NCBI GenBank assembly: GCA_043812195.1
Contig: JBDRML010000041.1
Coordinates: forward strand, 1-33,759
Reading direction: 5' to 3'
Origin: Candidatus Woesearchaeota archaeon
GTDB lineage: Archaea > Nanobdellota > Nanobdellia > SCGC-AAA011-G17 > PNOQ01
Length of the DNA: 33,759 bases
In this document: positions 3,701-33,415 of the stretch, in pieces
Layout of the letters: each line of letters starts with the position of its first letter
Numbering within the stretch: the first letter of the stretch is position 1
Program-made: the position numbers and the translations under genes
The notes under the pieces: generated by a model
Told to the model about the DNA's origin: nothing
What the model saw: the letters and a program-made list of their open reading frames with translations, nothing else
The model's database searches: none

Positions 3701-5183
3701 ATGCAATTATGCAAATGAATCACATCTAAATTTATTAGAAGAATTACCTGATGCAAGAGTATTTGCCCCAAAATATATCAAAGAAGCAGTTAAAAAATTA
3801 GGATACGACAAAGCAAGCAATATATGCAAAATAAAGAGTATTTCAGATTATTACAGCAATTTCTCAAAATCAAAACCATCATCACTAAATATCGAAAGTT
3901 TTAAAGAATTAATGAAGCAAGCCAAAATAAATTATAAAATAGAAGATTTAAGAATAAAATATGATAACAACAGCAAAAGTTTGCCTGCTAAACTTGAAAT
4001 AAGTGATGAATTATTAAGACTACTAGGATATTACGCTAGTGAAGGAACATTGCAAAACAAAAAAAAGAATTCTAAATTAGCTCTTTACGCAAAAAGAGAA
4101 AAAATATTAGAAGATATGAAACAATGTATAACTAAAATTATAAAAGAAGATCCAAGACAAAGAAAATGTGAAAGAGGATATGGTAGTTCAGAAGAGTTAA
4201 GCTTTTCAAACAAACCACTAATATCTTTAATAGAAAATTTATGCAAAAAAGGATCTCTTAATAAAACAATACCAGATTTCATTTTTGGTCTTTCAAAAGA
4301 AAGAATCGGGCAATTTTTAAGTGCACTATATTCTGGAGATGGTACATTCACTAAAAATTATTATGGTTATTTCACAATATCAAAGAGCTTAACAGATAAA
4401 CTGGCAAAATTACTATTAGTTTATGGAATAGTTCCTATCATAAGAGAAAGAAAAAGGAGAAAAAACAAAGATTACGAAGTTATTTTCTACAGACATGATC
4501 AGAAAAAAGAATTTTTAAAATACATGAATCCAATCAGAGAAAATTTACCAATAGGAAATCCTTCAAATAAAAAACAAAATATAATAAATGATTTTTATAT
4601 AGACAAAATAAAAGATATTAAAAAAATAAAACTAGAGAAACCAGAGCCAGTATACGATATTTCAATTCAGGGCTCAAGGAATTTTATAGGAGGGTTTGGG
4701 GGTGTAATGTTGCACAATTCTGGACACCCATCTTTCGGAACAATGCACGCAAATGATATTGATACAATGATTAAAAGACTTGAAACTCCACCAATTAATC
4801 TATCTCCATCATTAGTAGAAACAATGGATGCAGTGTGTGTAATGGTCCATTCAAAAGTAGCAGGGAAAGCAGTAAGAAGAGTAAAAGAAGTAACAGAAAT
4901 AATATCTGTAACTGGTTCAAAAGCAACAACAAACAATGTATTTCAATGGAATCCAACAAGTGACACATTTGCCTTTTCAGGAAGAAGTTTCATATTCAAT
5001 GAATTAACAAGTCAAGAAGGAATCCCACAAGAAGAACTAACAAGAGAATTCAGAAGAAGAACAGCATTACTAATCCAATTATACAACCAAGGAATTTTCG
5101 ATTTTAGTACAGTGCAAAAGATAATCAATACATATAGTAAAGTCCCAGAAAAAGTATTAGCAGAGTACGGAGTTCAATTATGA
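726..5183 (+). CDS. Type IV pilus/type II-IV secretion ATPase (FlaI/TadA/VirB11 family) with two inteins; spliced protein about 523 aa
   Basis: Walker A GGTGSGKT, Asp box SIEDTRE, Walker B YVIIGEIRG, His box SGHPSFGTMHA; followed by two T2SS-F membrane genes. Confidence 0.93.
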   Translation: MRKLPELPEKGRTIFKIEVEPEIPTFADVKKQDVDIRYSLLAPYAYAHIFWDEKAKEIVYYLEEPELTASERKILNLLEDGIKELVNMSYLQLKKGETIIEYLEKNLKVMLTELRITLTKDSYLKIMYYIYRDFVGLGKIEPLMNDYFIEDIECNGTEYPIYIVHRKFRNLKTNIIFKKTKDLATFVEKLAQKSGQYISYATPLLDAALPDGSVDYEEPVIFKENNTIKISKIGEFVDKFYKKDKSNTPIKVEKIEIPCFDQKTLKINWKPVDYVYRHKINENLYELILEYGKKIKLTGAHSIFSLIKEGVKPTKTEDLKEGDYVAYPLKIPQINNIKEINMAEKLSKTQHSNKLILNNIPAKIFEEKEEEVMDFLKENYKMPRHTFIEHRRKKILPLKLYKILKEETLRKCSIKTTSAVGIPTFLKVDKNLMKVLGLYIAEGWTSRIKNHYRLYFCLGAHELELIKELKDALKETFNISAYIEPEKSNAVKIVVNSFILWILLTEVLKLSKGTKNKRIPEIVLNANIGLQQEFLKYWSLGDYGSTSSKMLQNDISYLSIFNSDIVAFYDRQRESIIDNRVVKSHEFYTNFFVRSVSNDHSHMIPMEMFNPLKNTHHRFINKKLSRDRLKRILNEERYNKFRDLKNTKDRKFLNEWTKRGFIQGNILTDKGDELLSEIDTINKIIDSDLGFAKVKKINRKKSTSEFVYDLSVKGHENFISGTGGICCHNSRINATFTEDISSRGPTFTIRKFTKKPWTPTQLMYLRTVSPEMLAYLWLLIEYEKNIMVIGGTGSGKTSLLNGLSFFIPPQARVVSIEDTRELNIEHLNWLPSVARSGVGLANLVGQKYGEITLFNLLKESFRMNPDYVIIGEIRGEEAYVLFQGMASIKGDETLLLLNHDKPKNIAIKDLKPNIIYKAISLDKEGNMKIMPVKKRLVHPARNELYEITTKTGRKVTITPNHSILTEENNKIKSDYAEDLKKGGKILIPAKIPCNYANESHLNLLEELPDARVFAPKYIKEAVKKLGYDKASNICKIKSISDYYSNFSKSKPSSLNIESFKELMKQAKINYKIEDLRIKYDNNSKSLPAKLEISDELLRLLGYYASEGTLQNKKKNSKLALYAKREKILEDMKQCITKIIKEDPRQRKCERGYGSSEELSFSNKPLISLIENLCKKGSLNKTIPDFIFGLSKERIGQFLSALYSGDGTFTKNYYGYFTISKSLTDKLAKLLLVYGIVPIIRERKRRKNKDYEVIFYRHDQKKEFLKYMNPIRENLPIGNPSNKKQNIINDFYIDKIKDIKKIKLEKPEPVYDISIQGSRNFIGGFGGVMLHNSGHPSFGTMHANDIDTMIKRLETPPINLSPSLVETMDAVCVMVHSKVAGKAVRRVKEVTEIISVTGSKATTNNVFQWNPTSDTFAFSGRSFIFNELTSQEGIPQEELTREFRRRTALLIQLYNQGIFDFSTVQKIINTYSKVPEKVLAEYGVQL
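1362..2912 (+). mobile_element. Intein 1 (517 aa) with LAGLIDADG-type endonuclease domain
   Basis: LPDG|SVDYEEPV start, block B LTGAHSIF, VLGLYIAEG, block F/G VYDLSV...CCHN|S; removal restores LPDG-SRINAT. Confidence 0.92.
3384..4718 (+). mobile_element. Intein 2 (445 aa) with LAGLIDADG homing endonuclease
   Basis: QGMA|SIKGDE start, block B ITPNHSIL, LLGYYASEG and LSALYSGDG motifs, VYDISI...MLHN|S; removal restores QGMA-SGHPS. Confidence 0.93.
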
Positions 5184-5348: not shown

Positions 5349-6518
5349 ATGCCAAATGATATACTTGAATACACTAAAAAAATACTCGAACTTTCAGAAG
5401 AGATTAAACTACATGAAAACGAGGGAGATTTAGAGAAACATAAAGATCTTCTTAAAAAAATAAATGTTGCAGCAAAAGATTTACAATTCATAATAGAAAA
5501 TGACAAAGTAGAAAAAAAGAAAGTATCCACATCAAAAGAAGAGAAAGGAAAATATCTAAAAGAATTAAGATTAACAAAAGAAGAAGTTAAAAAATTCGCA
5601 AAAGATATCAAAAAACCTAAAAAAGAAGAAGAAATAAAATCCCATATTTACAAAACAAATTTCTATGCAAAACTAGCAAATTATTTCTTAGAAAATATAT
5701 CTTTTAAATTAATAAGAAAAAATCCAGAGAATTTCAAATCTCTATTTTATGACATAAGAGCAGCAGGAATAAGAATCTTATCAGAAACTTATCTAAGTAT
5801 CATCTTATTCTCAACTATAATAGCATTTCCCCTAGCTTTAATAATAACATTCTTCGCTTCATCATTCAATATATTATTAGCATTCGGCATAGGAATTTTA
5901 GCATCAATAGTAACATTCGCATTCACATGGTCATATCCAAACTTAGCAAAGACAGAAAGAAGTAAGAAAATAAAAGAAGAATTAGTCTTTGCAATAGTTC
6001 ATATGGCAGCAGTTGCTGGTTCAGGAGCACATCCAATAAAAATATTCGAATTATTAGTAGACTCACATGAATATCAAACAATAGAAAGAGAACTCCAAAG
6101 AGTTCTAAATTACATAAATTTATTCGGATACAGTCTATCAACTTCTTTAAGAGCAGTAGCTAATACCACACCCTCAGATGAATTCAAAGAATTATTACAC
6201 GGAATGAGCTCAACCATAGAAACTGGAGGAGACATAAAAGATTATTTACAAGAAAAATCAAAAGACGCCTTGATGCAATTCAAATTCGATCAAAAAAAGA
6301 AACTAGAAGCTCTTGCAACATACTCAGATATTTACACAGGAATTTTAATAGCAGGACCATTATTATTCATAGTAACTTTAGCAATCTTAGAAAAAATATC
6401 TCCAGAATTAGGAGGAATTTCAATAGGATTAATAGCCAATTTATCTGTATTCCTAGCCCTACCATTGCTAAATATATTTTACATATTATTCCTACAATCA
6501 GTGAGGTCTGAAATATGA
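5349..6518 (+). CDS. Type II secretion system F family membrane platform protein (TadB/C, FlaJ-like)
   Basis: Several TM segments, AAVAGSG...LFGYSLSTSLRAVANTTPSDEFKELL...ETGGD T2SSF signature, operon position. Confidence 0.88.
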   Translation: MPNDILEYTKKILELSEEIKLHENEGDLEKHKDLLKKINVAAKDLQFIIENDKVEKKKVSTSKEEKGKYLKELRLTKEEVKKFAKDIKKPKKEEEIKSHIYKTNFYAKLANYFLENISFKLIRKNPENFKSLFYDIRAAGIRILSETYLSIILFSTIIAFPLALIITFFASSFNILLAFGIGILASIVTFAFTWSYPNLAKTERSKKIKEELVFAIVHMAAVAGSGAHPIKIFELLVDSHEYQTIERELQRVLNYINLFGYSLSTSLRAVANTTPSDEFKELLHGMSSTIETGGDIKDYLQEKSKDALMQFKFDQKKKLEALATYSDIYTGILIAGPLLFIVTLAILEKISPELGGISIGLIANLSVFLALPLLNIFYILFLQSVRSEI

Positions 6519-7376: not shown

Positions 7377-8135
7377 ATGAAAAAAGGTCTAATGTACATA
7401 GATTGGTCAATAAGTGTAGCAATTTTCATAGTTTACTTAATAGGATTATTCATATACATTGCACCAGCATTAAATCAAGATTACTCAGAAGATTATCTAA
7501 AAACATTAGCAAAAACAGGATTTCAAGAAAATACAACAAACACTCTTTACAAATATCCAATTTTTATAAAACATCATGATGCAGGAATAGATTATCAATT
7601 CTCAATGGATGCACCTTCTAATATAAATTTAAATGAGCTTAAGACAGCAATCTACGATGAAGACCTAACACAAATAGAAGCACAAATAGAAGATAATACT
7701 CCAAATCCAGATAAAGTAACAGTTCATATTCCAAATATAGACGCAGAAGTAACAAAAACAATTTACATGATAATATCAGAAGAAATATACGAATCAATTC
7801 CTTATGTGGGGGGAGAAGATCCAATAAATGAATACGAATATGCTTTCGGAGTCCCAGAAGTTCTAACTGGATTATCACAAACAAAATTCAATGAATTAAA
7901 AGCTCTAAGTTATGAAGAAATAAAAGAAGTACTAAAATACCCAGCAGAGAGGAATATAGCAATTGATGTTTATTTCTATAATGAGTTAGGAGAAATTATA
8001 CCAGAAAATACATTATCAATACAACCAGACATAAAAACACAAAATAATACAGTCTATGCAACTCAATGGAGCACATGGGAAATTAATAAAAACTCTAATC
8101 TACTACCCATTACAATAAGAATACTAACTTGGTAA
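7377..8135 (+). CDS. Pilin-like protein with class III signal peptide
   Basis: MKKG|LMYIDWSISVAIFIVYLIGLF; ends in ILTW. Confidence 0.7.
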   Translation: MKKGLMYIDWSISVAIFIVYLIGLFIYIAPALNQDYSEDYLKTLAKTGFQENTTNTLYKYPIFIKHHDAGIDYQFSMDAPSNINLNELKTAIYDEDLTQIEAQIEDNTPNPDKVTVHIPNIDAEVTKTIYMIISEEIYESIPYVGGEDPINEYEYAFGVPEVLTGLSQTKFNELKALSYEEIKEVLKYPAERNIAIDVYFYNELGEIIPENTLSIQPDIKTQNNTVYATQWSTWEINKNSNLLPITIRILTW

Positions 8136-8139
8136 AAAA

Positions 8140-8580
8140 ATGAATAAAAGAGGATACATGAAAACACTAGAAGCTCTTTTAGCTATTGTAATATTTTTAG
8201 TAGCTTTATTCGCAATATTATCTGTGCAACCATCAAAAGAAGATCTTAAACCACAAGACATAGAATTAATGCAAGATACTATTTTAAACCAAATACAACA
8301 TAATGAAGTTTATAGAACAGAAATCCAGAATGATAACATAGGGATAGGTAGCGATATATATACATTCATAAATGATAGATTGCCTTTTACATTAGATTTT
8401 ATAATAAAATCATGTGATGATGTAAACACAAATTGCAATATCGATACAGACCCAAAATATATTGATTTTCAAGCAGCAGATAAAGTCTACGCAGATAGTA
8501 TAATAATTTCAGAAGAAACAGAAAACCCAGAAAATTCATATCAATCAAGATTATTCATTCTTTATTTATGGAGAAAATAA
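8140..8580 (+). CDS. Minor pilin-like protein with class III signal peptide
   Basis: MNKRG|YMKTLEALLAIVIFLVALF; ends in LYLWRK. Confidence 0.75.
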   Translation: MNKRGYMKTLEALLAIVIFLVALFAILSVQPSKEDLKPQDIELMQDTILNQIQHNEVYRTEIQNDNIGIGSDIYTFINDRLPFTLDFIIKSCDDVNTNCNIDTDPKYIDFQAADKVYADSIIISEETENPENSYQSRLFILYLWRK

Positions 8581-8627
8581 ATCTTTTAACATAACATTAA
8601 AATAGAAAAGTTTATATAGTAGTTATT

Positions 8628-9137
8628 ATGGATAATATAATGATTAAAGAAGGAAAATACACAGTAGAAACTTTCTCCAAAGAAAAAAATCTAACAAGAC
8701 AATCAGCTATCAATCTACTCTCAAAACTTAAAAAATCAGGTTTAGTAACTGTCAGCGGCGGAGGAAAACAGAAAAGAATATACACCATAACAAAAGTTCC
8801 ACAAAAACAAACTAATGGATTGTACGATATTCTTAATAAATACAGTCCAGAAAAATTAGTACCCAAATTTAAACATATTATAAAAGGCAAATACACTATT
8901 GAAAATGCACTAATAGATAGCATACTTATAGGAGACAAAAGAACACTTGATGCAGCAACACATCTTTTTAGACACATATCAAGCTGGAAAAGACTTTTTA
9001 ATTTAGCAAAAAAACATAAAGTAGAAAAAAAATTATACGACTTATATTTTATAGCAAGAAAAACCACTAAAGTTAAAAAAATGCCAAAGAGGTATCTTAA
9101 TAATGATAAATACAAAAGATCAAGAACAGCTCTTTAA
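8628..9137 (+). CDS. Winged-helix protein, putative AbiEi-like antitoxin/regulator
   Basis: N-terminal LTRQSAINLLSKLKKSGLV...RIYTI wHTH-like segment, YTIENALID motif, overlaps the nucleotidyltransferase gene; own promoter gaaaagtttatata near 8605. Confidence 0.55.
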   Translation: MDNIMIKEGKYTVETFSKEKNLTRQSAINLLSKLKKSGLVTVSGGGKQKRIYTITKVPQKQTNGLYDILNKYSPEKLVPKFKHIIKGKYTIENALIDSILIGDKRTLDAATHLFRHISSWKRLFNLAKKHKVEKKLYDLYFIARKTTKVKKMPKRYLNNDKYKRSRTAL

Positions 9138-9744
9138 GCTAATAGTAGACTATCTTGAAGAAGATATTGAATGCATTGCAATTGGAGGCACAGCTATGAT
9201 GTTCTCTGGTTATAAAACAGCAACAAAAGACATTGACTTAGTTTTCAAATCTAATAAAGACAGAAATATATTTATTAAAGCAATTGAAAAGATTGGATAC
9301 AAGCAAAAATCTCTATTAGGAATTTACGATGAAAAAAGAAAAGACAGCAAAAACAAACCATTATTATTTTCAAGAGGAGATGAAAGATTTGATTTATTTG
9401 TTAAAAATGTATTTGGTTTCAATTTAGATTTTGATATAAACAAAATAATCCAGAGAAATGATTTTTTAGGTAAGAAAGAACTAATAGTTTACGTTCTCCC
9501 AAAAGAAGACCTAATTCTTTTAAAATCAATAACAAGCAGAGAAAGAGACTATGAAGATATAGAAACAATAATCAATACAGATAATGAAATTGACTGGGAT
9601 TACATAATAAATGAAGCAATAAAACAAAAAAAGAACAATTCATGGATACTAATAGATTTAGAAGAAACACTTCAAAAATTAAAAACTAAAGCATTTATTC
9701 CAGACAAATACTTTAAAAGGATTTACAAAGAGCAAAAGAAATAA
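9103..9744 (+). CDS. Pol-beta-superfamily nucleotidyltransferase (DUF6036/AbiEii-like)
   Basis: IGGTAM...TKDIDLV and EDLILLKS..RERDYED motifs. Confidence 0.75.
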   Translation: MINTKDQEQLFKLIVDYLEEDIECIAIGGTAMMFSGYKTATKDIDLVFKSNKDRNIFIKAIEKIGYKQKSLLGIYDEKRKDSKNKPLLFSRGDERFDLFVKNVFGFNLDFDINKIIQRNDFLGKKELIVYVLPKEDLILLKSITSRERDYEDIETIINTDNEIDWDYIINEAIKQKKNNSWILIDLEETLQKLKTKAFIPDKYFKRIYKEQKK

Positions 9745-9804
9745 CGAAATCTTTATAAGTTTCTAAAGCCCAACCTTTCAAGAATACAAAAGGGGAGACA
9801 ATTA

Positions 9805-10425
9805 ATGATTAAAAAACTAAAATCTTTTTTTTACAGAATATTCAAAAAAAGGAAGCATATCAAACTGGGTTTCTACGGGCCGCCGAATGCTGGTAAGACC
9901 ACTTTGTGTAATAAAATATGCGAAGATTGGATTGGTGAAGAAATGGGTTCTGTTTCTAAAATCCCTCACGAAACAAGAGAGATTAAAATAAAAGAAAAAG
10001 TAACCATGAAATCTAATGGAAAAGAACTTTCTTTCAATATTATAGACACACCTGGAATCGCAACAAAAGTAGACTATGAAGATTTCATGAAATTCAAAGT
10101 CAATAGAAAAGATGCAAGAAAAAGAGCCAGAGAAGCAACAAAAGGAGTTATAGAAGCAATCAAATGGTTAGACAATGTAGACTGCGTGATTGTAGTTTTA
10201 GATGCAACTAAAAATCCTTACTCACAAGTTAACATAACTATTATAGGAAATTTAGCAGCAAGAGACATTCCTGTATTAATAGTAGCAAACAAAATAGATT
10301 TAAAATCAGCTAATGTAAAGAAAGTAGAAGCTGCATTTCCACAATATCCTGTTATAGCTATCTCAGCAGAAATGAGAGAAAATATTGAAAACTTTTATAA
10401 AGAGGTATTTAAATTAGTTAAGTGA
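9805..10425 (+). CDS. oapA: Archaeal small GTPase OapA/ArvA (Era-like)
   Basis: G1 GPPNAGKT, G2 HETR, G3 DTPG, G4 NKID, G5 ISA; followed by DUF2073 and Zn-ribbon genes. Confidence 0.85.
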   Translation: MIKKLKSFFYRIFKKRKHIKLGFYGPPNAGKTTLCNKICEDWIGEEMGSVSKIPHETREIKIKEKVTMKSNGKELSFNIIDTPGIATKVDYEDFMKFKVNRKDARKRAREATKGVIEAIKWLDNVDCVIVVLDATKNPYSQVNITIIGNLAARDIPVLIVANKIDLKSANVKKVEAAFPQYPVIAISAEMRENIENFYKEVFKLVK

Positions 10426-16304: not shown

Positions 16305-16470
16305 AAAATTTCTGTTAAATAATAACAAAAGGTCATGGCCATAAACAAAAGTAATCTGGTGCATTAATTGGGCTTTAGCAACAGTTAAAATCAAAGTTTT
16401 GAAGATATGTTATTACTCTAAGATAGAAAATAAAAAAGTTTATAAGGGGGGTTTTATTTTCAAATTTAAT

Positions 16471-17607
16471 ATGTTAGGTCCATACACTACAAACAAAGAT
16501 GGAACAATTTCCTACAAGGGAAATAAAGTGTTTAAACCTATAAAAAATATCAATTCTATAGATGTTCCTATTGAGGAATTTGAAAAAAGAGTAGAACAGT
16601 TTAATACAGATAAAATGTGGGGGCATATAGCGAAGATCAACCATCAAATAAATATGTCAGCAAATTTATACTTCGAAGAATTAGGTTCAACATTTACAGC
16701 ATTGCCTTCAACAACTAGGATGATTTCATCACCAGGAGCAGTGTATAGCAAAGAAGCTGTTAATTATACAACAGATACGTGCCCTATAACTATTAAATGG
16801 TTTGAGTTGCCAAATGAGGCATTTCTTTCAGAATCTTCACAAATCTATTTAGAATTAGCTTTAATGCAAAAAGGAATAGATAGTGTTTATTCAATTTATA
16901 ATTCTTTCAGAAAAGAAAAAGCAGATGCAACACATCTGTCTGAATTTCACCACATTGAATATGAAGGAAAAGTAGACCAAATAAAGAACGAAACAATTGC
17001 TTTGGGTTTAATAAAAAGAATAATTTTAGACCTTTTAAAAAATAATAAGGAAGATTTAGAATATTTTTTATCTAATGAAAGACTAAAAGAACTTGAAGAA
17101 TTTGCAGAGAAAATAATGGATATTCCAAAAATTACATTTAAAGAAGCACTTAACTTACTTTTTAAAGAGACAGGCAATAAAAAATATAAGGAGTTTAGTC
17201 TTAAACATTTTAAATCCTGGGAAGAGGTCAAAATAACAGAAATATTAGGCAATATGATTTTAATTAGAGAATTTCCTCTATTAGAAGTGCCTTTTTATCA
17301 TGCAGTTGTTGATGGAAGAGAACCAAAAGTGGCTAATAATGCTGATATAATCTGGTCAGGGTATAGAGAAATAATTGGAAGCGGTCATAGAGTAAGATCA
17401 GAAAAAGAACTTGAAGAAAAATCAGAAATATTTAATCTTCCTAAAGAAGATTATGAACCTTATCTTCAGACAAGAAAATCAAAAAATTATAAAGCAACAT
17501 CTGGTTTTGGGCTTGGTTGGGAAAGATTATTACAAGGGCTTTTAGAAATGCCTTTCATATGGAGTGCTAACCAATTTCCAAGAGTTGATGGGACTTTGAA
17601 ACCTTAA
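16471..17607 (+). CDS. Class IIb aaRS catalytic-domain paralog (AsnRS/AspRS-like, no anticodon-binding domain; asparagine synthetase-like)
   Basis: LSESSQIYLE, motif 2 SFRKEKADATHLSEFHHIEYE, EIIGSGHR, motif 3 GFGLGWERLL; no OB fold; ATG 16471 after TATA-like aagtttataa preferred over TTG 16399. Confidence 0.85.
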   Translation: MLGPYTTNKDGTISYKGNKVFKPIKNINSIDVPIEEFEKRVEQFNTDKMWGHIAKINHQINMSANLYFEELGSTFTALPSTTRMISSPGAVYSKEAVNYTTDTCPITIKWFELPNEAFLSESSQIYLELALMQKGIDSVYSIYNSFRKEKADATHLSEFHHIEYEGKVDQIKNETIALGLIKRIILDLLKNNKEDLEYFLSNERLKELEEFAEKIMDIPKITFKEALNLLFKETGNKKYKEFSLKHFKSWEEVKITEILGNMILIREFPLLEVPFYHAVVDGREPKVANNADIIWSGYREIIGSGHRVRSEKELEEKSEIFNLPKEDYEPYLQTRKSKNYKATSGFGLGWERLLQGLLEMPFIWSANQFPRVDGTLKP

Positions 17608-18448: not shown

Positions 18449-19765
18449 ATGGCAAGAGTAAAATCTAACCAAATTCAAGAACTTCCTTTAGAGACCAGAG
18501 TAAGTTTAAAGGGGAGGATTATCTTAAAAAGGGATTTTGGAAAGAGAGTTTTTTACACATTAAAGGATGATGAGGGATTAGTTCAAGTTTCTTTAGAAAG
18601 AGGCTCTTTCGAAAAAGAAGAGAATTATAAAGAATTAAAAAAAGGATTGAGTATTGGGGACATTGTAAGTCTTGATGGAATAACGAGTCTTTCAAATACT
18701 GGAACACCAACATTAGCAATAGCAGAGGTGGATATTTTGACAAAATGTAGAAAGCTTTTACCAGATAAGGATAAGGGTTTAAATAATTATAATCAGTATA
18801 CTAATAGAGGTTTACATTTATTGACGGACAAGAATGCTTTAAGTAAATTTAGGAGACTTAATTTTCTCAGAAGATCGGTTCGAGATTATTTACACCAACA
18901 AGGATATGAAGAAGTAGACACAGGCATACTTAAATCAGTTTCTGATACTTCAATGTCTGCGGAATTTGTAACCACTGGAAATTGGACATCCTCTCCACTA
19001 TATTTAAGAAAATCTACTGAAATGAGGTTAAAACAATTAATGGTTGGAGGATTAGAAAAGATATTTGAATTAGGAAAAGAATTTAGAAACGAAGGAGTTT
19101 CATCACAATTTTTACCTGAATTCACTGCATTAGAATTGTATGGGGCATATTTAGATTATAAAGATATATTAAATTTAACTGTTGGGATGATGGATAGGAT
19201 TAATGAAGAAGTTGGAGAACCAGAATCAAAACCTACCCATTTTTGGGAAGTGTTCTTATATGGTTTTATTCAGGAAGAAACAAAGACTGATATGAGGGAT
19301 GCTTCTTTAGAACAAATTAAGGAATTAATACATCCAGAGATCTTTAAAGAATATTCAAATCATCCAGCAATGAGAGCCTTTTATATTTATGACACTTTTA
19401 GGAGCCTTCTAAAAAAATATCCTGAACAAAATATTGTACTTCATGGAGTTCCTTTAGAAGTTTCTCCATTAGCAAAAACATTTGACAATGAACCAACACT
19501 AGTGGAAGAGTTTAGATACTTTGTTAAAGGTACTTCTTTTTGTGGTGGGATGACGGAGTTAACAGATCCACAAGAGCAATGTAGAAGGATAACTAATCAA
19601 GCAGAATATCTTGGAAAATCATTAGATGATATTGATAACCAATTTACTGAATTATTAGAATATGGATTACCCCCTTGTGGTGGATTAGGGCTAAGTCTAG
19701 AAAGGCTTATGATGATTTATGCAGAAACAAAAAATATAAAAGAGGTTGTATATTTTCCCTTATAA
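18449..19765 (+). CDS. Class II lysyl-tRNA synthetase-like protein, divergent paralog
   Basis: N-terminal OB fold (GRIILKRDFGK...IGDIV), LKQLMVGGLEKIFELGKEFRNEG, motif 3 YGLPPCGGLGLSLERL...VVYFP. Confidence 0.85.
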   Translation: MARVKSNQIQELPLETRVSLKGRIILKRDFGKRVFYTLKDDEGLVQVSLERGSFEKEENYKELKKGLSIGDIVSLDGITSLSNTGTPTLAIAEVDILTKCRKLLPDKDKGLNNYNQYTNRGLHLLTDKNALSKFRRLNFLRRSVRDYLHQQGYEEVDTGILKSVSDTSMSAEFVTTGNWTSSPLYLRKSTEMRLKQLMVGGLEKIFELGKEFRNEGVSSQFLPEFTALELYGAYLDYKDILNLTVGMMDRINEEVGEPESKPTHFWEVFLYGFIQEETKTDMRDASLEQIKELIHPEIFKEYSNHPAMRAFYIYDTFRSLLKKYPEQNIVLHGVPLEVSPLAKTFDNEPTLVEEFRYFVKGTSFCGGMTELTDPQEQCRRITNQAEYLGKSLDDIDNQFTELLEYGLPPCGGLGLSLERLMMIYAETKNIKEVVYFPL

Positions 19766-26549: not shown

Positions 26550-26622
26550 AAATTATCTGAATTTGTGGCGTTTATATTAATTATGGAGATACTTTTTTAA
26601 ACTAAATTAACTATGTTATTTG

Positions 26623-27327
26623 ATGGTGCCTAAACTTGTTTTTAAGAAAAACAAAAAATTAGATATTATTAATTGTTATAATGCTATAAATGGTAAAAGT
26701 TTTGGCACTTATTTTAAGTCATTTACTGAAGATTTCATTAAAAAAATAAAAGATAAACCTTTTGAAGAAGTGAAAGAAATAATTAAGGAGAAAATAGATT
26801 TTGCTTATGAAAGAGATAAAGAGAGAATTGAATTTGTACTGAAAGAATCTGAAAAGGGATGGATGAGAATAAATGATGAATTCTTTAATAGATTAGAGAA
26901 AATAATGAAAAAAAAGTTTTTACCTAAAAAAATTACAGTTTATGCTACTGTTTTGGGAAGATGTGACTATAATTATAGTTTAGATGATCCATTTTTTAAG
27001 ATTTCTATAAGATCTTCACCAATTCCTGATACACAAATTAAAACTATGATGCATGAAATGATGCATTTTATGTTTCATTGGCACTATTGGGATTATTGCG
27101 AGAAAAAAATCGGCAAAGAACTAACAGGCCATCTTAAAGAAGCTCTAACATTTATTTTAAATGAAGAATTTAATGATATAGGGGGATATGAAGATAAAGG
27201 ATATCCTATGCATAGAGAATTAAGGAAAAAACTAACCAAAATTTGGAGAAAAGACAAAGACTTTGAAACATTTTTGGATAAAAGCATTAATGTTATGAAA
27301 AGATTTAAACACAAAAAAAGAATTTGA
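26623..27327 (+). CDS. HEXXH zinc metallopeptidase-like protein
   Basis: MHEMMH with a downstream LKEAL glutamate (gluzincin-like arrangement). Confidence 0.65.
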   Translation: MVPKLVFKKNKKLDIINCYNAINGKSFGTYFKSFTEDFIKKIKDKPFEEVKEIIKEKIDFAYERDKERIEFVLKESEKGWMRINDEFFNRLEKIMKKKFLPKKITVYATVLGRCDYNYSLDDPFFKISIRSSPIPDTQIKTMMHEMMHFMFHWHYWDYCEKKIGKELTGHLKEALTFILNEEFNDIGGYEDKGYPMHRELRKKLTKIWRKDKDFETFLDKSINVMKRFKHKKRI

Positions 27328-27583: not shown

Positions 27584-27653
27584 GCAAACAAAACATTTAT
27601 AAATACATCCTTGCAACATATATGCTAGAGTATATACTTACTCAGGGGGGAAA

Positions 27654-27830
27654 ATGAAAAATATCTATGTGGGCAAAGAAGAATATTTGGCTGATTTTAT
27701 TGAAGACCCGATAAATTTAGAATACAAAACGCCATACGGTGGAAAATGTACAAAATGTAGTACATGTACAAAATGTGGTGGTAAATGTAGTAAATGTTCA
27801 TTAGATAGAGAAATCGCGGATGAATTATAA
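27654..27830 (+). CDS. Putative RiPP (azole-containing peptide) precursor, 58 aa, not in ORF track
   Basis: MKNIYVGKEEYLADFIEDPINLEYKTPYGG-KCTKCSTCTKCGGKCSKCS-LDREIADEL*; G-rich RBS agggggg just upstream, TATA-like tttataaa near 27596, heads the YcaO/SagB operon. Confidence 0.82.
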   Translation: MKNIYVGKEEYLADFIEDPINLEYKTPYGGKCTKCSTCTKCGGKCSKCSLDREIADEL

Positions 27831-27850
27831 TCGCGATTTCTTTTTTCTTT
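27809..27850 (+). terminator. Hairpin plus T-run at the 3' end of the precursor gene
   Basis: agaaatcgcg (27809-27818) pairs with cgcgatttct (27832-27841), followed by tttttcttt. Confidence 0.65.
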
Positions 27851-27858
27851 CTAAAAAA

Positions 27859-28431
27859 ATGGTGAAAATAAATTTTTTTTACAGCAACCAACTTCAATTC
27901 AATATACTTAATTGCCCATACAATTGGAAAAAACTAGATAATTTTTTAAATAAATTAGAAAGGTTATTTAATAAAAATAAAATATATATATTAAACGAGA
28001 TTAAAAGATTAACAGGAATAAAATGGAAACAAAAAAGCATTGATGTTTGGCTTTTCGAAGGTTGGAAATCTTCTATCTCTTATCCACTTCTTTTGAATAC
28101 TTATGAATATAATCTAGATTTTTGTTTTTTTAATTTAGTTCATGAATTAATTCATAATAATTTAATAAATTTCAAGGAATTAAATATAAAAGATAAAATA
28201 AAAGGATGGGATGCAAATGAATTAGAAGCAATTGTTGAATTAATTACTTTAAATGTTTTTAAGAACATATATTCTGAAAAAAAATTAAAAAAAATGTGTA
28301 AATTATCCGAACTAGATGGATCTTATAAGTATATATGGATTAGAGTAAGAGAATTAGAAAAAGAAATAGATTTTTCTAAAACGACGATAATTGAATGGTG
28401 TAAAAGTAAGAAATATGTTATTTCAAAATGA
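27859..28431 (+). CDS. HEXXH (gluzincin-like) metallopeptidase, candidate leader/follower protease
   Basis: LVHELIH plus NELEAIV; start ATG 27859 preferred; ATGA overlap with ycaO. Confidence 0.7.
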   Translation: MVKINFFYSNQLQFNILNCPYNWKKLDNFLNKLERLFNKNKIYILNEIKRLTGIKWKQKSIDVWLFEGWKSSISYPLLLNTYEYNLDFCFFNLVHELIHNNLINFKELNIKDKIKGWDANELEAIVELITLNVFKNIYSEKKLKKMCKLSELDGSYKYIWIRVRELEKEIDFSKTTIIEWCKSKKYVISK

Positions 28432-29705
28432 ATTATAAAAAAACATTTAACAAAATGAAAAAATTAATTGGCACTAAAAAAATAATCAATAGTATTCACA
28501 AATCCTTACAGTTTACAGATGAACCTAAATTTTTTCAATACACAGCATTTATGAATAATTATTCAAAAAAAACTTCAGCCCCCTTTGATAAAGAAGAATG
28601 TTATGGATCTGGATTAGATATAGATGAAGATTTAGCTAAGATAAAAACAATTGGAGAGTGTATTGAAAGATATTGCCTTGCAATATTTCAAAATAAAAAT
28701 TTTATAAAAGAAAAGTATACAAAATTATCAAAAGAAACTAACATTTTGAACATACTAGATTTAATTAACTTTACAAATAAACCAGAAGAATATTTTTCCA
28801 AAATAAAAAATAAAAAAATAAATTGGTCAGAAGGTTATGATTTTTTAAAAAATAGAAAAGTTCTAATTCCTTCTCAATTAATATATGTTCCATATTATGC
28901 AAAAGAACCAACTATAAGACTTCCATTAAGTAGCGGAGCTGCCTGTGCCGAAAGCAAAAAAGAAACAATATATAAAGGTATATGCGAGCTTATTGAAAGA
29001 GATTCTTTTATGATATATTATCTAAATAAAATTTCACCAGAAAAAATAAATTTAAACTCTATAAAAAATAAAGAAATAAATGAGATGATATCAAGATTTA
29101 AAAAATATTTTTTAGAAGTTCACCTTTTAAATATTACTACAAATTTAAAAGTTCCATCAATTCTTTGTATACTAATTGATAGAACAGGAGTTGGCCCAGC
29201 AATTTCCATTGGAGCTAAATCAGATTTAAATATCTACAAAGCAATAAGAGGATCAATATTAGAAGCACAACATGGCAGAACATGGATAAGATGTAAAATG
29301 ATTATGGGTGAAAAAATAAAAAGTAGTAAAGAAATTAAAAGTCCTGAAGATAGAGCATTATATTGGGCAAACAAAAAACAAATCCAAAAATTAGATTATA
29401 TGATTAATTCAAAAAAAACAATATCAATTAAAAAAGTTAAAAGCAAAAAATCAAATATAAACTCTAATTTTAAAGATATAATAAAAATAATAGAAGATAA
29501 AAAATACAATATTTATTATAAAGATATCACAACAAAAAAAATTGAAGATGCCGGATTCAAAGTAATAAAAACGATTATTCCACAATTACATCCTCTTTTT
29601 TTATTTGAAGAATGTAAATACTTATATAGCGAAAGATTAAAGAAAGTTCCAATTGAACTAGGACATAATAAAAAATTAAATAAAGAAGTCCACCCCTTTG
29701 TTTAA
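28428..29705 (+). CDS. ycaO: YcaO family cyclodehydratase (stand-alone)
   Basis: GECIERYC, SSGAACA, ICELIERD ATP/Mg motifs; C-terminal HPFV tail. Confidence 0.93.
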   Translation: MNYKKTFNKMKKLIGTKKIINSIHKSLQFTDEPKFFQYTAFMNNYSKKTSAPFDKEECYGSGLDIDEDLAKIKTIGECIERYCLAIFQNKNFIKEKYTKLSKETNILNILDLINFTNKPEEYFSKIKNKKINWSEGYDFLKNRKVLIPSQLIYVPYYAKEPTIRLPLSSGAACAESKKETIYKGICELIERDSFMIYYLNKISPEKINLNSIKNKEINEMISRFKKYFLEVHLLNITTNLKVPSILCILIDRTGVGPAISIGAKSDLNIYKAIRGSILEAQHGRTWIRCKMIMGEKIKSSKEIKSPEDRALYWANKKQIQKLDYMINSKKTISIKKVKSKKSNINSNFKDIIKIIEDKKYNIYYKDITTKKIEDAGFKVIKTIIPQLHPLFLFEECKYLYSERLKKVPIELGHNKKLNKEVHPFV

Positions 29706-29708
29706 AAA

Positions 29709-30446
29709 ATGGAAAATAAATTAAGAAAGATACATGAAGAAACGAAAATAGAAATTAAACCATCTTATAAAAACGAAGAATATCCAAAATCATGGATTAA
29801 AATATATTACAAAAATTACCCACGTTTTAAAAAAATAAAATTACCAAAACCAAAGAAAATAAGCAAACAATTATATGAGGTTATTTTATCAAGATCTTCT
29901 ATTCGTAATTTTAATAAAAAATCTATAACTATAAGAGAAATTTCTGAAATATTATATTATTCATGCGGAATTACGAATTATCATAATTCAAAATCGATAG
30001 ATGAAACTAAAAGATCATATCCTTCAGCAGGAGGAAGATATCCTATAGAAATCTATTTGGCCATTTTTAAATGTGAAGGCATTAAACCAGGAATTTACCA
30101 CTATAATGTAAAAGGACATTATCTCGAATTAATGATTCCAGGAAATCATATGAATAAAATAAATGGAGTAACCTATCAAGATATGATAATTAAAAGTTCA
30201 ATAACTTTTCTCCTAACCGGAGTTTTTAGTAGAACACAAGTAAAATATGGTACTAGAGCTTATAGATATATTCTATTAGATCTAGGTCATATGGCTCAAA
30301 ATATTTACTTAGTATCTACCAATCTCCAAATAGGTTGCTGCACAATAGGGGGATTTAGTGACGAAAAAATAAATAATTTTTTAGATTTAGATAAAAGTGA
30401 ACAAGTTTTATATATGGGAGTTTTAGGGAAATATGATAAAAATTAA
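29709..30446 (+). CDS. SagB/ThcOx-type FMN-dependent azoline dehydrogenase
   Basis: SRSSIRNF, RSYPSAGGRYPIEIY, GIYHY, KYGTRAYRY, DLGHMAQN. Confidence 0.93.
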   Translation: MENKLRKIHEETKIEIKPSYKNEEYPKSWIKIYYKNYPRFKKIKLPKPKKISKQLYEVILSRSSIRNFNKKSITIREISEILYYSCGITNYHNSKSIDETKRSYPSAGGRYPIEIYLAIFKCEGIKPGIYHYNVKGHYLELMIPGNHMNKINGVTYQDMIIKSSITFLLTGVFSRTQVKYGTRAYRYILLDLGHMAQNIYLVSTNLQIGCCTIGGFSDEKINNFLDLDKSEQVLYMGVLGKYDKN

Positions 30447-30960
30447 TCTAAAATCTAGTTGGATATTGAATGATTTCTTTTTGAAAACAGGGCAAGAGAA
30501 AAATCAGAAGAAAAAAGAAAGAGAAGTAAAAAAATTATTTAATAATAATAAATCATACATTTTCAAAATGTTAAAAAAAATAACAAAGTTAGATTGGAAA
30601 CGAGATTCATTAGACATCTGGATAATAGGTGGCACTTTTCCAACCAGTCCATTTCCAAATTTTTTAAATGTAAATGAAAGCAACAATTATTTACTATTTG
30701 ATATTATTTATTTATTAATTCATAATCTTCTTATACAAAATGATTTTTATTCAAAGTTATTTAAGGATGAAGAATACGACAATACAAAACTTGAAGCTAT
30801 AGTTTTTCTATTAACTAAAAAAATATTGGAGGGAATACTCACAAAAAAAGAATTAATCGAAATAATAGAAAAAACTAAAAAAGAAGGATTTAACCAATAT
30901 ATTTGGGATGAAGCAAATCTTTTAGAAAAAAATAATAAATATCTTTCTTTTTTTAAGTAA
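30433..30960 (+). CDS. Degenerate paralog of the 27859-28431 HEXXH protein
   Basis: Aligns throughout (W..DSLDIW, IHNL, LEAIV, YIW) but HELIH is replaced by YLLIH. Confidence 0.7.
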   Translation: MIKINLKSSWILNDFFLKTGQEKNQKKKEREVKKLFNNNKSYIFKMLKKITKLDWKRDSLDIWIIGGTFPTSPFPNFLNVNESNNYLLFDIIYLLIHNLLIQNDFYSKLFKDEEYDNTKLEAIVFLLTKKILEGILTKKELIEIIEKTKKEGFNQYIWDEANLLEKNNKYLSFFK

Positions 30961-31607: not shown

Positions 31608-31706
31608 ATGAAATCCAATAATGTAAAAGATAATAAGTATAAAAATCTTTGCTGTTCAAAGTGCAAATGTAAACATATCAAGAAGAATGGAAAGGTAACC
31701 GTTTAG
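31608..31706 (+). pseudogene. 5' remnant of an IS1/IS6-like transposase
   Basis: MKSNNVKDNKYKNLCCSKCKCKHIKKNGKVTV* resembles the CPYC...VVKRG start of the transposase at 21782; hairpin agggattc-agaa-gaatccct at 31561-31580. Confidence 0.5.
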
Positions 31707-31759: not shown

Positions 31760-33415
31760 ATGAAATTGCAAAATAAAATAATATTATACACTTTAATATT
31801 TGTATTAATATCAAGTACATTAGCAGCTTCAAGTTGTGCAGTTATTCAAAAAAGCGGAATTTATGTTGAAGATCTTTCTAATGTAGATTATGTACCTGGC
31901 CAGGTTGTAGTTTTAATTAAAGAAAATAGATTAGGAGACACTCAAATTGAAAATATGTTAAGACAAGCAAGTCCAGTTTCAATAAACTCAATAGATAAAT
32001 TGCATAAATATGATTTAAAATCAAGTCCAAGAAATCATGGTAAAAGAATGTTCACCTTAAATTTTAATGAAAATATAAATCCAAAATATGTTTCTAATAT
32101 AATATCTAAAAATTCTTTGGTTTTAATAGCAGAGCCGGAATATATAGGATATTTAACTTCTATACCTAATGATCCTTTATTTTCAGATCAATGGGGTTTG
32201 CATAATACAGGCCAAAATGGCGGAACACCAGATGCAGACATAGATGCACCAGAAGCATGGGATCTTGAAACAGGTTCTGAAGATATAATAATTTCAATAA
32301 TAGACACAGGAGCTGATTTAGATCACGAAGATTTAGTTGATAAACTGCTTCCAGGTTGGGATGTTTTTAATCATGATTTAATTCCAGAAGATACCTCTGG
32401 TCACGGGACAATGGTTACCGGAATAGCAGCAGCATCTACAAATAATAATTTAGGTATCGCAGGAACATGTCCAGACTGTATGATTTTACCAGTTAAAGCA
32501 GGAAATAACTCTTTCTTAGCATCCAATATATACTATGCCATCGAATATTCTTTAAATAATCCGAATAATTTAGAAGGCATACCTGAAAACCAGAATATTG
32601 CAAATATAATATCAATGCAGGTTGCATTTTCATCCCCAAGCACATTTCTTAGATGGGGTGTAGAAGACGCATATGCTATGGGTGTTATTTTAGTTGCTGG
32701 TGCTGGTAATAATAACAACAATACACCAAGATACCCAGCAGCATTTCCAGAAGTTATTGGTGTGGCTGCGACAGATGAAAATGATGTCAAGACAACTTTT
32801 TCAAGCTATGGTACGTGGGTTGATGTTGCATCACCAGGAATTAATATATGGAGTACCTATCTTTTAGGAAATTATAATTATGGTTGGGGCACATCATTCT
32901 CAACACCATTCGTCTCTGGCGTAATTGGTCTAATACTATCAAAAAACCCAGATTTTAGTAATGAGGAAGTAAGACAAATTTTAATTGATACATCAGATCC
33001 AGTAACAGGTTTCCCGGAAATAATTGGTGGAAGAATAAACGCATATCAAGCATTGCTTGCAACTCCAGAACCAAACTATGCGCCAGATTTATTTCCAATA
33101 GATAACATAATAATTCAAGAAACAGAGCCAGTAATAATAATAGCTGAAGCAATAGATCCGAATAACGATGAAATAATATTTTCAATTAATGATTCAAGAT
33201 TTGAAAGCACAGCACTTCCAAGAGACGGAGACATTCAAAAAATGATGTTTAGCTGGACCACGGGTTATCAAGATCAAGGAATTTATCAGTTTGAAGTCAC
33301 AGCAAGCGATGGAGAATTAGAAGATACAGAATTAGTAAATGTTATAATAAACAATAAACCATTGGGTGGAAAAACATTACCATACCAACAATATATTCCT
33401 GAAGAAGGTTATTAA
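31760..33415 (+). CDS. Secreted S8 (subtilisin/thermitase-like) serine protease with C-terminal Ig-like domain
   Basis: Signal peptide, prodomain, IIDTG (Asp), GHGT (His), GAGN, GTSFSTPFVSG (Ser), VTASDGELED Ig-like tail. Confidence 0.93.
   Translation: MKLQNKIILYTLIFVLISSTLAASSCAVIQKSGIYVEDLSNVDYVPGQVVVLIKENRLGDTQIENMLRQASPVSINSIDKLHKYDLKSSPRNHGKRMFTLNFNENINPKYVSNIISKNSLVLIAEPEYIGYLTSIPNDPLFSDQWGLHNTGQNGGTPDADIDAPEAWDLETGSEDIIISIIDTGADLDHEDLVDKLLPGWDVFNHDLIPEDTSGHGTMVTGIAAASTNNNLGIAGTCPDCMILPVKAGNNSFLASNIYYAIEYSLNNPNNLEGIPENQNIANIISMQVAFSSPSTFLRWGVEDAYAMGVILVAGAGNNNNNTPRYPAAFPEVIGVAATDENDVKTTFSSYGTWVDVASPGINIWSTYLLGNYNYGWGTSFSTPFVSGVIGLILSKNPDFSNEEVRQILIDTSDPVTGFPEIIGGRINAYQALLATPEPNYAPDLFPIDNIIIQETEPVIIIAEAIDPNNDEIIFSINDSRFESTALPRDGDIQKMMFSWTTGYQDQGIYQFEVTASDGELEDTELVNVIINNKPLGGKTLPYQQYIPEEGY

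Follow-up and report, generated by a model that had tools for sequence, protein, structure and literature searches.

A minimal YcaO-SagB cassette with a small Cys/Ser/Thr-rich precursor gene, probably directing linear azol(in)e peptide synthesis in a DPANN archaeon

We analyzed a 33,759-nt stretch of DNA (the window) from a Candidatus Woesearchaeota archaeon (assembly GCA_043812195.1, contig JBDRML010000041.1, forward strand), a DPANN archaeon with a genome of ~0.94 Mb that is 90.4% complete. The window contains a five-gene cassette of ~3.3 kb encoding a small precursor peptide, a zincin-fold protein with an HExxH motif, a YcaO protein, a SagB-type dehydrogenase, and a zincin paralog from which the HExxH motif has been lost. 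The cassette is probably an intact system of the linear azole-containing peptide (LAP)/thiazole-oxazole-modified microcin (TOMM) type, in which a linear azol(in)e peptide would be formed by a partner-less YcaO and SagB and trimmed by the zincin. As its product, a linear polyazole peptide is most likely. A first-pass annotation had proposed a reduced-genome DPANN-type archaeal YcaO/SagB cluster for a peptide that is ribosomally synthesized and then post-translationally modified (RiPP) with a small Cys/Ser/Thr-rich open reading frame (ORF) as substrate, and every computational test that was run backed this proposal. The features of the cassette are as follows.

27597 to 27606 (+), TATA-like A/T box, possible archaeal promoter element (sequence reading)
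27645 to 27650 (+), G6 run, Shine-Dalgarno-like (G-run count)
27654 to 27830 (+), precursor peptide gene, 58 aa, with leader (residues 1-30), family motif (15-19), core (31-49), and acidic follower (50-58)
27743 to 27797 (+), 9-bp tandem repeat, ~4-6 copies, coding for the Lys-Cys-Ser/Thr core repeats (Tandem Repeats Finder)
27803 to 27852 (+), RNA hairpin over the precursor stop codon, then a U-rich tract (folding against shuffles)
27820 to 28431 (+), probable start 27859, zincin-like protein with HExxH, proposed leader peptidase (motif, fold match)
28428 to 29705 (+), YcaO cyclodehydratase of the SagD type, 425 aa, consisting of the YcaO domain alone (TIGR03604, model)
29709 to 30446 (+), SagB-type FMN dehydrogenase, 245 aa, Lys-Tyr pair at K179-Y180 (TIGR03605)
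30433 to 30960 (+), zincin paralog, 175 aa, HExxH lost (YLLIH), candidate pseudo-peptidase (alignment)

In the ORF listing, the five genes follow one another on the forward strand in this order, with neighbors overlapping or abutting, in agreement with the run of peptidase, YcaO, SagB, and paralog headed by a 58-aa ORF that had been described. All five are intact and tightly coupled. The G+C content of the cluster is 22-25%, lower than that of the window (28.8%).

The 58-aa product of ORF 27654-27830 (+) is MKNIYVGKEEYLADFIEDPINLEYKTPYGGKCTKCSTCTKCGGKCSKCSLDREIADEL. Its 19-residue core bears out the claimed composition of 6 Cys, 6 Ser/Thr, and 5 Lys, with Cys/Ser/Thr accounting for 12 residues. 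Tandem Repeats Finder detected a period of 9, i.e., three codons, in the core DNA (27743-27797) with 3.8 and 5.7 copies, corresponding to the repeat core of the first-pass annotation, and the acidic follower was likewise found at residues 50-58. The length of the ORF alone is not beyond chance, and the ORF listing contains many spurious ones. Judged by its conservation, the 58-aa ORF is a real gene, because the syntenic peptide of locus L006 was matched by BLASTP with an E value of 2e-9 and a precursor family model matched 42 of 50 related locus rows. The exact 58-aa protein was found in a public protein collection (P0098), and near-identical DNA with an unchanged precursor coding sequence was present in contigs of two other metagenome runs (groundwater).

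The G-rich ribosome-binding site that had been claimed is the G6 run ending 4 nt 5′ of the precursor ATG. Runs of at least five G were found 17 times on both strands of the whole window, GGAGG/GAGGT-like sites are located 5′ of other window genes, and one metagenome contig has a 1-nt deletion within the G6 run. The TATA-like box is also present as the A/T stretch TTTATAAATA, 50-57 nt 5′ of the precursor start; it is a plausible candidate TATA box with a putative promoter role, A/T-rich boxes being common at 28.8% G+C. The G+C-rich hairpin at 27803-27852 had a folding energy of -17.1 kcal/mol (z -3.34; 0 of 200 shuffles equally stable) and is followed by a U-rich tract. It is possibly an attenuator or stabilizer between the precursor and enzyme genes. 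As a conserved attenuator it was rejected, since none of six related loci folded with z below -2. In locus L007, a long U run is located 3′ of the precursor gene instead of a hairpin.

A search of the organism's own genome with the window precursor detected no second copy, the next match having an E value of 0.27. A 32-aa Lys/Cys-rich ORF at 31608-31706 (+), between the cluster and a downstream S8 subtilase gene, was considered as a second precursor and rejected, as the precursor model did not match it at E ≤1; it is probably a chance ORF in A/T-rich DNA. Of two metatranscriptome runs searched at the locus, one had no matches and the other only ~30-nt ones, 90-95% alike and within a stretch rich in A/T, which give no indication of expression. 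Complex prediction for YcaO and the precursor gave no answer (score 0.00 in two runs, control complexes not folded).

We next describe the precursor family, for which 50 locus rows including the window were mapped, several of them duplicating each other. The family model was built from 30 hand-picked upstream ORFs, which match by construction, and a match was called at an E value below 1e-4; L033, L042, L047, and L049 and duplicates lie outside the model. The 42 matched rows, mostly DPANN, represent 33 distinct peptides. Among the eight unmatched rows, three are bacterial, three are cut at contig ends (L012, L043, and L044), and two had no precursor that could be seen (L013 and L045). The three bacterial loci have another small Cys-rich ORF in the precursor position. 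Small ORFs were thus found 5′ of YcaO in nearly all related loci; a lack of conserved small Cys-rich ORFs at these loci was the outcome that the first-pass annotation had named as speaking against its proposal.

An IENAPY-type leader motif, [IV]E[NDSG][APV], was detected in 29 of the 33 peptides, compared with 7 of the 1394 remaining small ORFs at the loci. Most members have a hydrophobic-Gly junction at the end of the leader, and some have Gly-Gly. The leader of the window precursor had been described as ending in Gly-Gly; Gly29/Gly30 are indeed present, but they are a variant of the conserved hydrophobic-Gly junction and not a C39-type end. The double-glycine (C39-processed) leader class was accordingly rejected, since Gly-Gly is not general in the family and Peptidase_C39 (PF03412) had no match in the 90.4%-complete genome. 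A GLExKV-type C-terminal follower was found as a loose pattern in 27 of the 33 peptides, a count without a background estimate. The cores are hypervariable and either Cys-rich or Cys-free and Ser-rich, with Cys, Ser, or Thr abundant in every sub-family. The Cys-free members (L004, L039, L040, and L050) keep leader, follower, and position. This switching between Cys-rich and Cys-free Ser-rich cores under constant leader, follower, and synteny argues for heterocyclization substrates rather than metal-binding mini-proteins. Pfam and NCBIfam assigned no family to 27 of the precursors; there were single chance-level matches, the best being heterocycloanthracin/sonorensin (E 0.0036; 1 of 27). In a search of 5.8 billion proteins, 21 members of the precursor family were found, named at most "hypothetical protein."

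Furthermore, both enzymes of the claimed YcaO and SagB-type dehydrogenase pair scored above the NCBI curated cut-offs. The window YcaO (425 aa) matched PF02624 (E 3.9e-49) and the SagD family thiazole/oxazole maturase model TIGR03604 (239.3 bits; cut-off, 219.25) and failed the McrA-thioamidation model TIGR03266 (102 bits; cut-off, 365). The window SagB (245 aa) matched TIGR03605 with 156.6 bits (cut-off, 78.4). Azoline oxidation is the known role of SagB dehydrogenases. A KYG motif was found in 27 of 32 distinct full-length SagBs, including that of the window (K179-Y180), and the Lys-Tyr pair is catalytic in McbC according to the part of the literature covered (PMC8442711). An alignment of 31 YcaOs of the clade contained 25 invariant columns, including acidic ExxER and ExxERD motifs. 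These motifs presumably bind ATP/Mg. A DEP[KR] element near the N-terminus was present in 31 of 31 sequences.

The structural model of the window YcaO had a pLDDT of 90 and a pTM of 0.92. Residues 1-424 aligned to residues 346-775 of LynD, its YcaO domain alone (Z 36.6, 395 aligned), residues 1-412 aligned to MJ1094 (Z 38.2, 363 aligned), and McbD was matched with Z 30.4. Because the whole 425-aa model aligns to a YcaO domain alone, the protein as modeled is without room for an E1-like domain or a RiPP recognition element (RRE). Consistent with the first-pass annotation, no E1-like, ThiF-like, RRE, or TfuA partner was found in the cluster, nor in the 50 related locus rows. In the 90.4%-complete genome, TIGR03603, TfuA (PF07812), and PqqD had no match, and TIGR03882 fell short of its cut-off with 12.6 bits, obtained on a lone ThiF gene located on another contig. 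This only ThiF-family gene of the genome (229 bits, 246-aa frame; contig C23, 36790-37440) appears housekeeping-like.

The upstream zincin (27820-28431) has HELIH at residues 108-112 (H108-E109-x-x-H112) in the 203-aa reading. The protein probably starts at 27859 and is 190 aa in length, because homologs begin there and the stored protein copy has 190 aa. Its model (pLDDT 89.4) best matched the catalytic domains of M1 aminopeptidases (1z1w_A, Z 10.8, root mean square deviation 3.6, 158 aligned), and nearly all of the 50 fold-match entries listed are HExxH-type metallohydrolases. Foldseek detected nothing in the PDB at E ≤0.001, and the fold assignment came from the wider structure search only. 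Among 1.84 billion proteins, the zincin family has 77 representatives, named no further than "hypothetical protein." In the Protein Atlas, the nearest clusters are unnamed, with Peptidase_M78 at 0.87 serving as a lead only. Membership of the window zincin-fold proteins in DUF2268 (PF10026) was also considered and rejected: no match was obtained at E ≤0.1, and hhalign with the DUF2268 proteins of related loci gave a probability of 14%, around the HExxH motif.

The downstream 175-aa protein is 35% identical to the upstream zincin (E 1e-21). It had been annotated as an HEXXH paralog; the paralogy holds, and at the aligned site the protein reads YLLIH, so that the HExxH motif is lost. By its sequence it looks like a dead peptidase. 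The motif was lost in 4 of 4 downstream copies of the five-gene layout and kept in every upstream copy, in 9 of 9 single copies, and in 13 of 13 DUF2268 rows. Across the family, the motif is retained by 51 of the 77 representatives and missing from 23, with 3 that could not be placed in the alignment.

The YcaO-SagB system appears sparse in the phylum, because few genomes match. A related YcaO was detected in 2 of 60 relatives of the genome, and among 400 other genomes of the phylum, 11 matched at E ≤1e-20, 9 of them below 1e-50. A scan of species-representative genomes detected 14 loci. Eleven were from DPANN archaea (Nanoarchaeota/Nanobdellota, Pacearchaeota, Woesearchaeota, Diapherotrites, Iainarchaeum, and Aenigmatarchaeota) and three from bacteria (Levybacteria, a Gammaproteobacteria metagenome-assembled genome, and Cyclobacteriaceae). 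A metagenome scan added 33 further loci, one of them identical to the window, and a Woesearchaeota locus mapped twice (L004 and L015) is present in a genome of the same family (G014), in support of the archaeal DPANN assignment. SagB was directly 3′ of YcaO in 40 of the 50 rows, and 9 of the other 10 end at a contig edge.

Three layouts were distinguished. Layout A (precursor, zincin, YcaO, SagB, and zincin paralog) is that of the window, L006, L007, and L022. In layout B, the precursor is followed by YcaO, SagB, and one zincin of the same family as the window's, and in layout C by YcaO, SagB, and a DUF2268 protein (PF10026; E 8e-26 and 8e-22). Every complete archaeal locus except L016 has one HExxH protein, of the zincin family in A and B or DUF2268 in C, and two bacterial loci carry an M16 peptidase in place of the zincin. 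At the Aenigmatarchaeota locus L016, whose precursor has 9 Cys, the slot after SagB is occupied by a radical SAM protein of 640 aa that has a zinc ribbon at its N-terminus (7953-9878, -) and may add a further modification. In a YcaO tree, for which all 31 alignment rows were used, the accessory type followed the clades: the DUF2268 clade had support of 100/100, and the clade of the window, L006, and L007 had 98/96. L022 and the bacterial pair took no resolved position.

The flanking genes vary between related loci. The closest relative of the cassette, L006 (YcaO 52% identical), has a DDE_3 transposase fragment on one side and a TnpB/Cas12f-like TNB-domain fragment on the other (L006 17-223 and 3640-3945), which hints that the cassette is transferred on mobile elements. 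Broken relatives were also observed, with YcaO split in L045 and in genome G186 (C14) and SagB split in L037/L038; these are either decaying copies or assembly errors.

From these data we infer the following pathway, including its chemistry and the cleavage site. The 58-aa precursor would be translated with a leader carrying the family motif and a 19-residue Lys-Cys-Ser/Thr core. The SagD-type YcaO would then cyclodehydrate Cys/Ser/Thr of the core to azolines with ATP and without an E1-like/RRE partner, and the SagB flavoprotein would oxidize the azolines to thiazoles and (methyl)oxazoles. The HExxH zincin would remove the leader near the conserved hydrophobic-Gly junction. The downstream paralog, unable to be a peptidase, would probably be a non-catalytic helper that binds the peptide, binds the active paralog, or protects. 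A macrocycle had also been suggested from the follower; nothing in the analysis backs this. A more specific form of the pathway, which we hold tentatively and consider doubtful as it stands, is an RRE-free, leader-directed azole synthetase, in which the single-domain YcaO would itself read the IENAPY-type leader and/or the GLExKV-type follower, perhaps through its invariant N-terminal DEPK element, and the dead zincin would act as a peptide-holding helper.

Several points weigh against the proposed pathway. According to the part of PMC7136475 covered, a leader-recognition partner of LAP systems (E1-like C or ThiF-like F) is present "in most cases," and canonical azoline-forming YcaOs usually need one; a partner-less azoline-forming YcaO acting via a leader would be without a proven case. 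The solved structure closest in sequence is that of MJ1094, a YcaO that forms thioamides independently of TfuA (E 1.4e-13; MusD, 1.8e-8), and in fold there is little to choose between MJ1094 (Z 38.2) and LynD (Z 36.6). A Pro-rich C-terminus is said, in the part of PMC8442711 covered, to mark azoline-forming YcaOs; PxP occurs within the last 8 residues of 28 of the 31 YcaOs, and in the window YcaO this end is reduced to a single Pro. For the zincin, the third zinc ligand is guessed to be E136 of a conserved LEA, and Pfam matched 0 of 41 family members apart from one weak SprT-like match. Window ORFs, Pfam, and the related loci revealed no exporter or immunity gene in the cluster, in accordance with the exporter-free cluster first described. 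Finally, every member of the family is so far known as a sequence only.

Three other explanations were weighed against the pathway of YcaO/SagB azole formation followed by zincin trimming. It is conceivable, but we think it unlikely, that the zincin-fold proteins, above all the dead paralog, replace the E1-like/RRE partner, their peptidase groove binding the leader or follower so that the core is presented to YcaO, with proteolysis secondary or absent. This explanation overlaps with the favored pathway instead of excluding it. It would account for a zincin-type gene beside YcaO-SagB in every complete archaeal locus except L016 and for the accessory type tracking the YcaO clades (100/100 and 98/96). 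The HExxH-less paralog is kept in 4 of 4 five-gene loci and the motif is missing from 23 of 77 family representatives; a non-catalytic role under selection is therefore indicated. AmiB is moreover a precedent for a cryptic partner missed by sequence methods, as far as PMC8442711 was covered. By contrast, single copies always keep HExxH (9 of 9; DUF2268, 13 of 13), which fits a working peptidase, and the accessory is interchangeable in the manner of leader peptidases, being M16 in bacterial relatives and absent from the archaeal L016. The fold, too, is that of a zincin and neither E1-like nor a winged helix.

The remaining two explanations concern the chemistry and the gene itself. That YcaO performs another backbone chemistry, either thioamidation (as for McrA and the thioamitides) or amidine/macrocycle formation via the follower, so that the product is no polyazole, appears very unlikely. 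MJ1094, the nearest solved relative by sequence, forms a thioamide, and we take it to work without TfuA. The Pro-rich tail of the window YcaO is weak, the follower is conserved, and partner-less bottromycin YcaOs form a macroamidine and thiazoline, according to the part of PMC7136475 covered. However, the window YcaO scored 102 bits against the TIGR03266 cut-off of 365 and above the cut-off of the SagD model, SagB is adjacent in 40 of 50 rows, the cores are Cys/Ser/Thr-rich in all sub-families, and TfuA (PF07812) had no genome match. The C-terminal tail of the YcaO model also aligned to residues 424-425 in LynD, MusD, TruD, and McbD, but only to 412 in two methanogen YcaOs. We give the least credence, and very little of it, to the small ORF being a CxxC metal-binding mini-protein or no gene, incidental before YcaO, or to the cassette being a decaying, silent passenger. 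The regular CxxC spacing could bind metal, relatives with split YcaO (L045 and G186) or SagB (L037/L038) exist, the cluster is poorer in G+C (22-25%) than the window on average (28.8%), and one relative, L006, lies between transposase fragments. Conversely, the Cys-free members keep leader, follower, and position, the five window genes are all intact and tightly coupled, and contigs of the two other metagenome runs carry the precursor coding sequence without change.

Several neighboring genes were also noted. Directly 5′ of the cluster, a 235-aa protein with HEMMH is encoded at 26620-27327 (+). As a third zincin paralog it was not established (BLASTP gave E 0.013 across 41 residues, and hhalign a weak, collinear similarity with 16.7% probability and E 0.0015), and from its sequence it may be a very distant third copy. 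The S8 subtilase encoded at 31760-33415 (+) combines a hydrophobic N-terminus with a prodomain-like region and, at the C-terminal end, an Ig-like part; it is probably outside the pathway, because it is not conserved beside related cassettes. In the 5′ part of the window, a 1485-aa type II/IV secretion (PilB/T2SSE-like) ATPase (726-5183, +) is interrupted by intein material, with Intein_splicing matched over two stretches alongside a LAGLIDADG domain and a Hint module, and is followed by T2SSF-like membrane partner genes at 5349-6518. Two class II aminoacyl-tRNA-synthetase-like genes are located near each other (16399-17607 and 18449-19765, +). The 402-aa product of the first consists of the catalytic domain only and may be a synthetase paralog with another role, whereas the 438-aa product of the second also has an OB anticodon-binding domain.

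YcaO-type RiPP clusters have been counted across archaea, DPANN included, and called widespread, unexplored, and uncharacterized, and no archaeal YcaO-type RiPP has been characterized, according to the part of PMC12144867 covered. The precursor family was not described in the literature found on YcaO with DPANN, as far as that literature was covered; supplementary tables lie outside this coverage, and a prior listing there is possible. No literature linking DUF2268 with YcaO was found. Within this coverage, what is new is the family of archaeal precursors along with its leader and follower motifs, the zincin family, so far unnamed, and the conserved active/dead pair; the same minimal layout is already in print for bacteria of the candidate phyla radiation (CPR) (PMC7298704). 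The cassette raises the mechanistic question of how a SagD-type YcaO finds its substrate without an E1-like/RRE partner, and it is small enough for synthesis and test in one experiment. The conserved leader and follower motifs offer defined handles on recognition, and the active/dead zincin pair poses a second tractable question. If true, an RRE-free YcaO would represent a third solution to substrate recognition beside E1/ThiF-RRE partners and the follower-only mode of bottromycin, and the cassette would be the smallest known complete polyazole pathway, on a mobile cassette common to DPANN archaea and CPR bacteria. As speculation on function, a Lys-rich polyazole from an organism of ~0.94 Mb, probably living on other cells, could act on the host or on competitors.

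The cassette was compared with known systems. As in the canonical LAP/TOMM synthetases (microcin B17 McbBCD and streptolysin S SagBCD), a SagD-type YcaO, for which McbD is a structural match (Z 30.4), is combined with a SagB-type FMN dehydrogenase and a leader-bearing Cys/Ser/Thr-rich precursor. Unlike in these systems, no C (E1-like), F (ThiF-like), or RRE is present, either in the cluster or fused to YcaO. Bottromycin precursors have a follower and are not known to have a leader, whereas the window cassette has a conserved leader and a SagB dehydrogenase. The likeness to bottromycin YcaOs, drawn by description only, lies in the proposed azoline formation without a partner and in a precursor with a C-terminal follower (PMC7136475 and PMC4603692, each covered in part). 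The minimal LAP cluster has been defined as comprising A, B, and D, the last usually accompanied by a C or F partner, and partner-less clusters were left out of mining, according to the part of PMC7136475 covered.

Among archaeal systems, the haloazolisins and thermoacidophisins (Cox et al. 2015, PMC4603692, covered in part) are also azole-peptide clusters, and the precursors of the haloazolisins, like those of layout C, are for the most part rich in Ser. The haloazolisin cyclodehydratases are described there as fused, with a barely recognizable C domain, and those of the thermoacidophisins as discrete C and D proteins. In contrast, the window cassette has no C part and belongs to another leader family. 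The YcaO of McrA-glycine thioamidation, MJ1094 (PDB 6pe3/6peu), is, like the window YcaO, archaeal, single-domain, and partner-less, and is its nearest solved chain by sequence and fold. The window YcaO, by contrast, failed TIGR03266 and stands coupled with SagB and a small precursor, in an organism that is no methanogen as far as the window shows. The 203-aa zincin resembles the gluzincins (M1 aminopeptidases and thermolysin) in its HExxH motif and fold (Z 10.8-9 for M1, 7.1 for thermolysin). It is far smaller than M1 enzymes (~190 aa), and neither zincin-fold protein of the window has a Pfam match; in sister loci, DUF2268 (PF10026) proteins take its slot.

A CPR-bacterial LAP cluster with YcaO, a nitroreductase, a peptidase, and an 84-aa precursor was described by Sharrar et al. 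(2020, mBio, PMC7298704), along with another 110 clusters of this kind from 93 further CPR genomes; in 89 of these clusters a nitroreductase lies beside YcaO, according to the part of that paper covered. In these clusters, as in the window, the precursor is beside YcaO, a nitroreductase-type dehydrogenase and then a peptidase complete the layout, there is no E1-like partner, and the genomes are ultra-small. The first-pass annotation had called the architecture unusually minimal; this holds against canonical LAP systems, but the layout is the norm for this clade and has been described for CPR bacteria in the same source. The Levybacteria locus L010 is of the CPR LAP type, with a YcaO 38% identical to that of the window and an M16 peptidase. 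The window cassette differs from this type in its archaeal (DPANN) host, in its IENAPY-type leader, where L010 and L014 pair a Pro/Cys core with a leader of the DAKEF type, and in an unnamed zincin with a dead paralog in place of the M16 peptidase.

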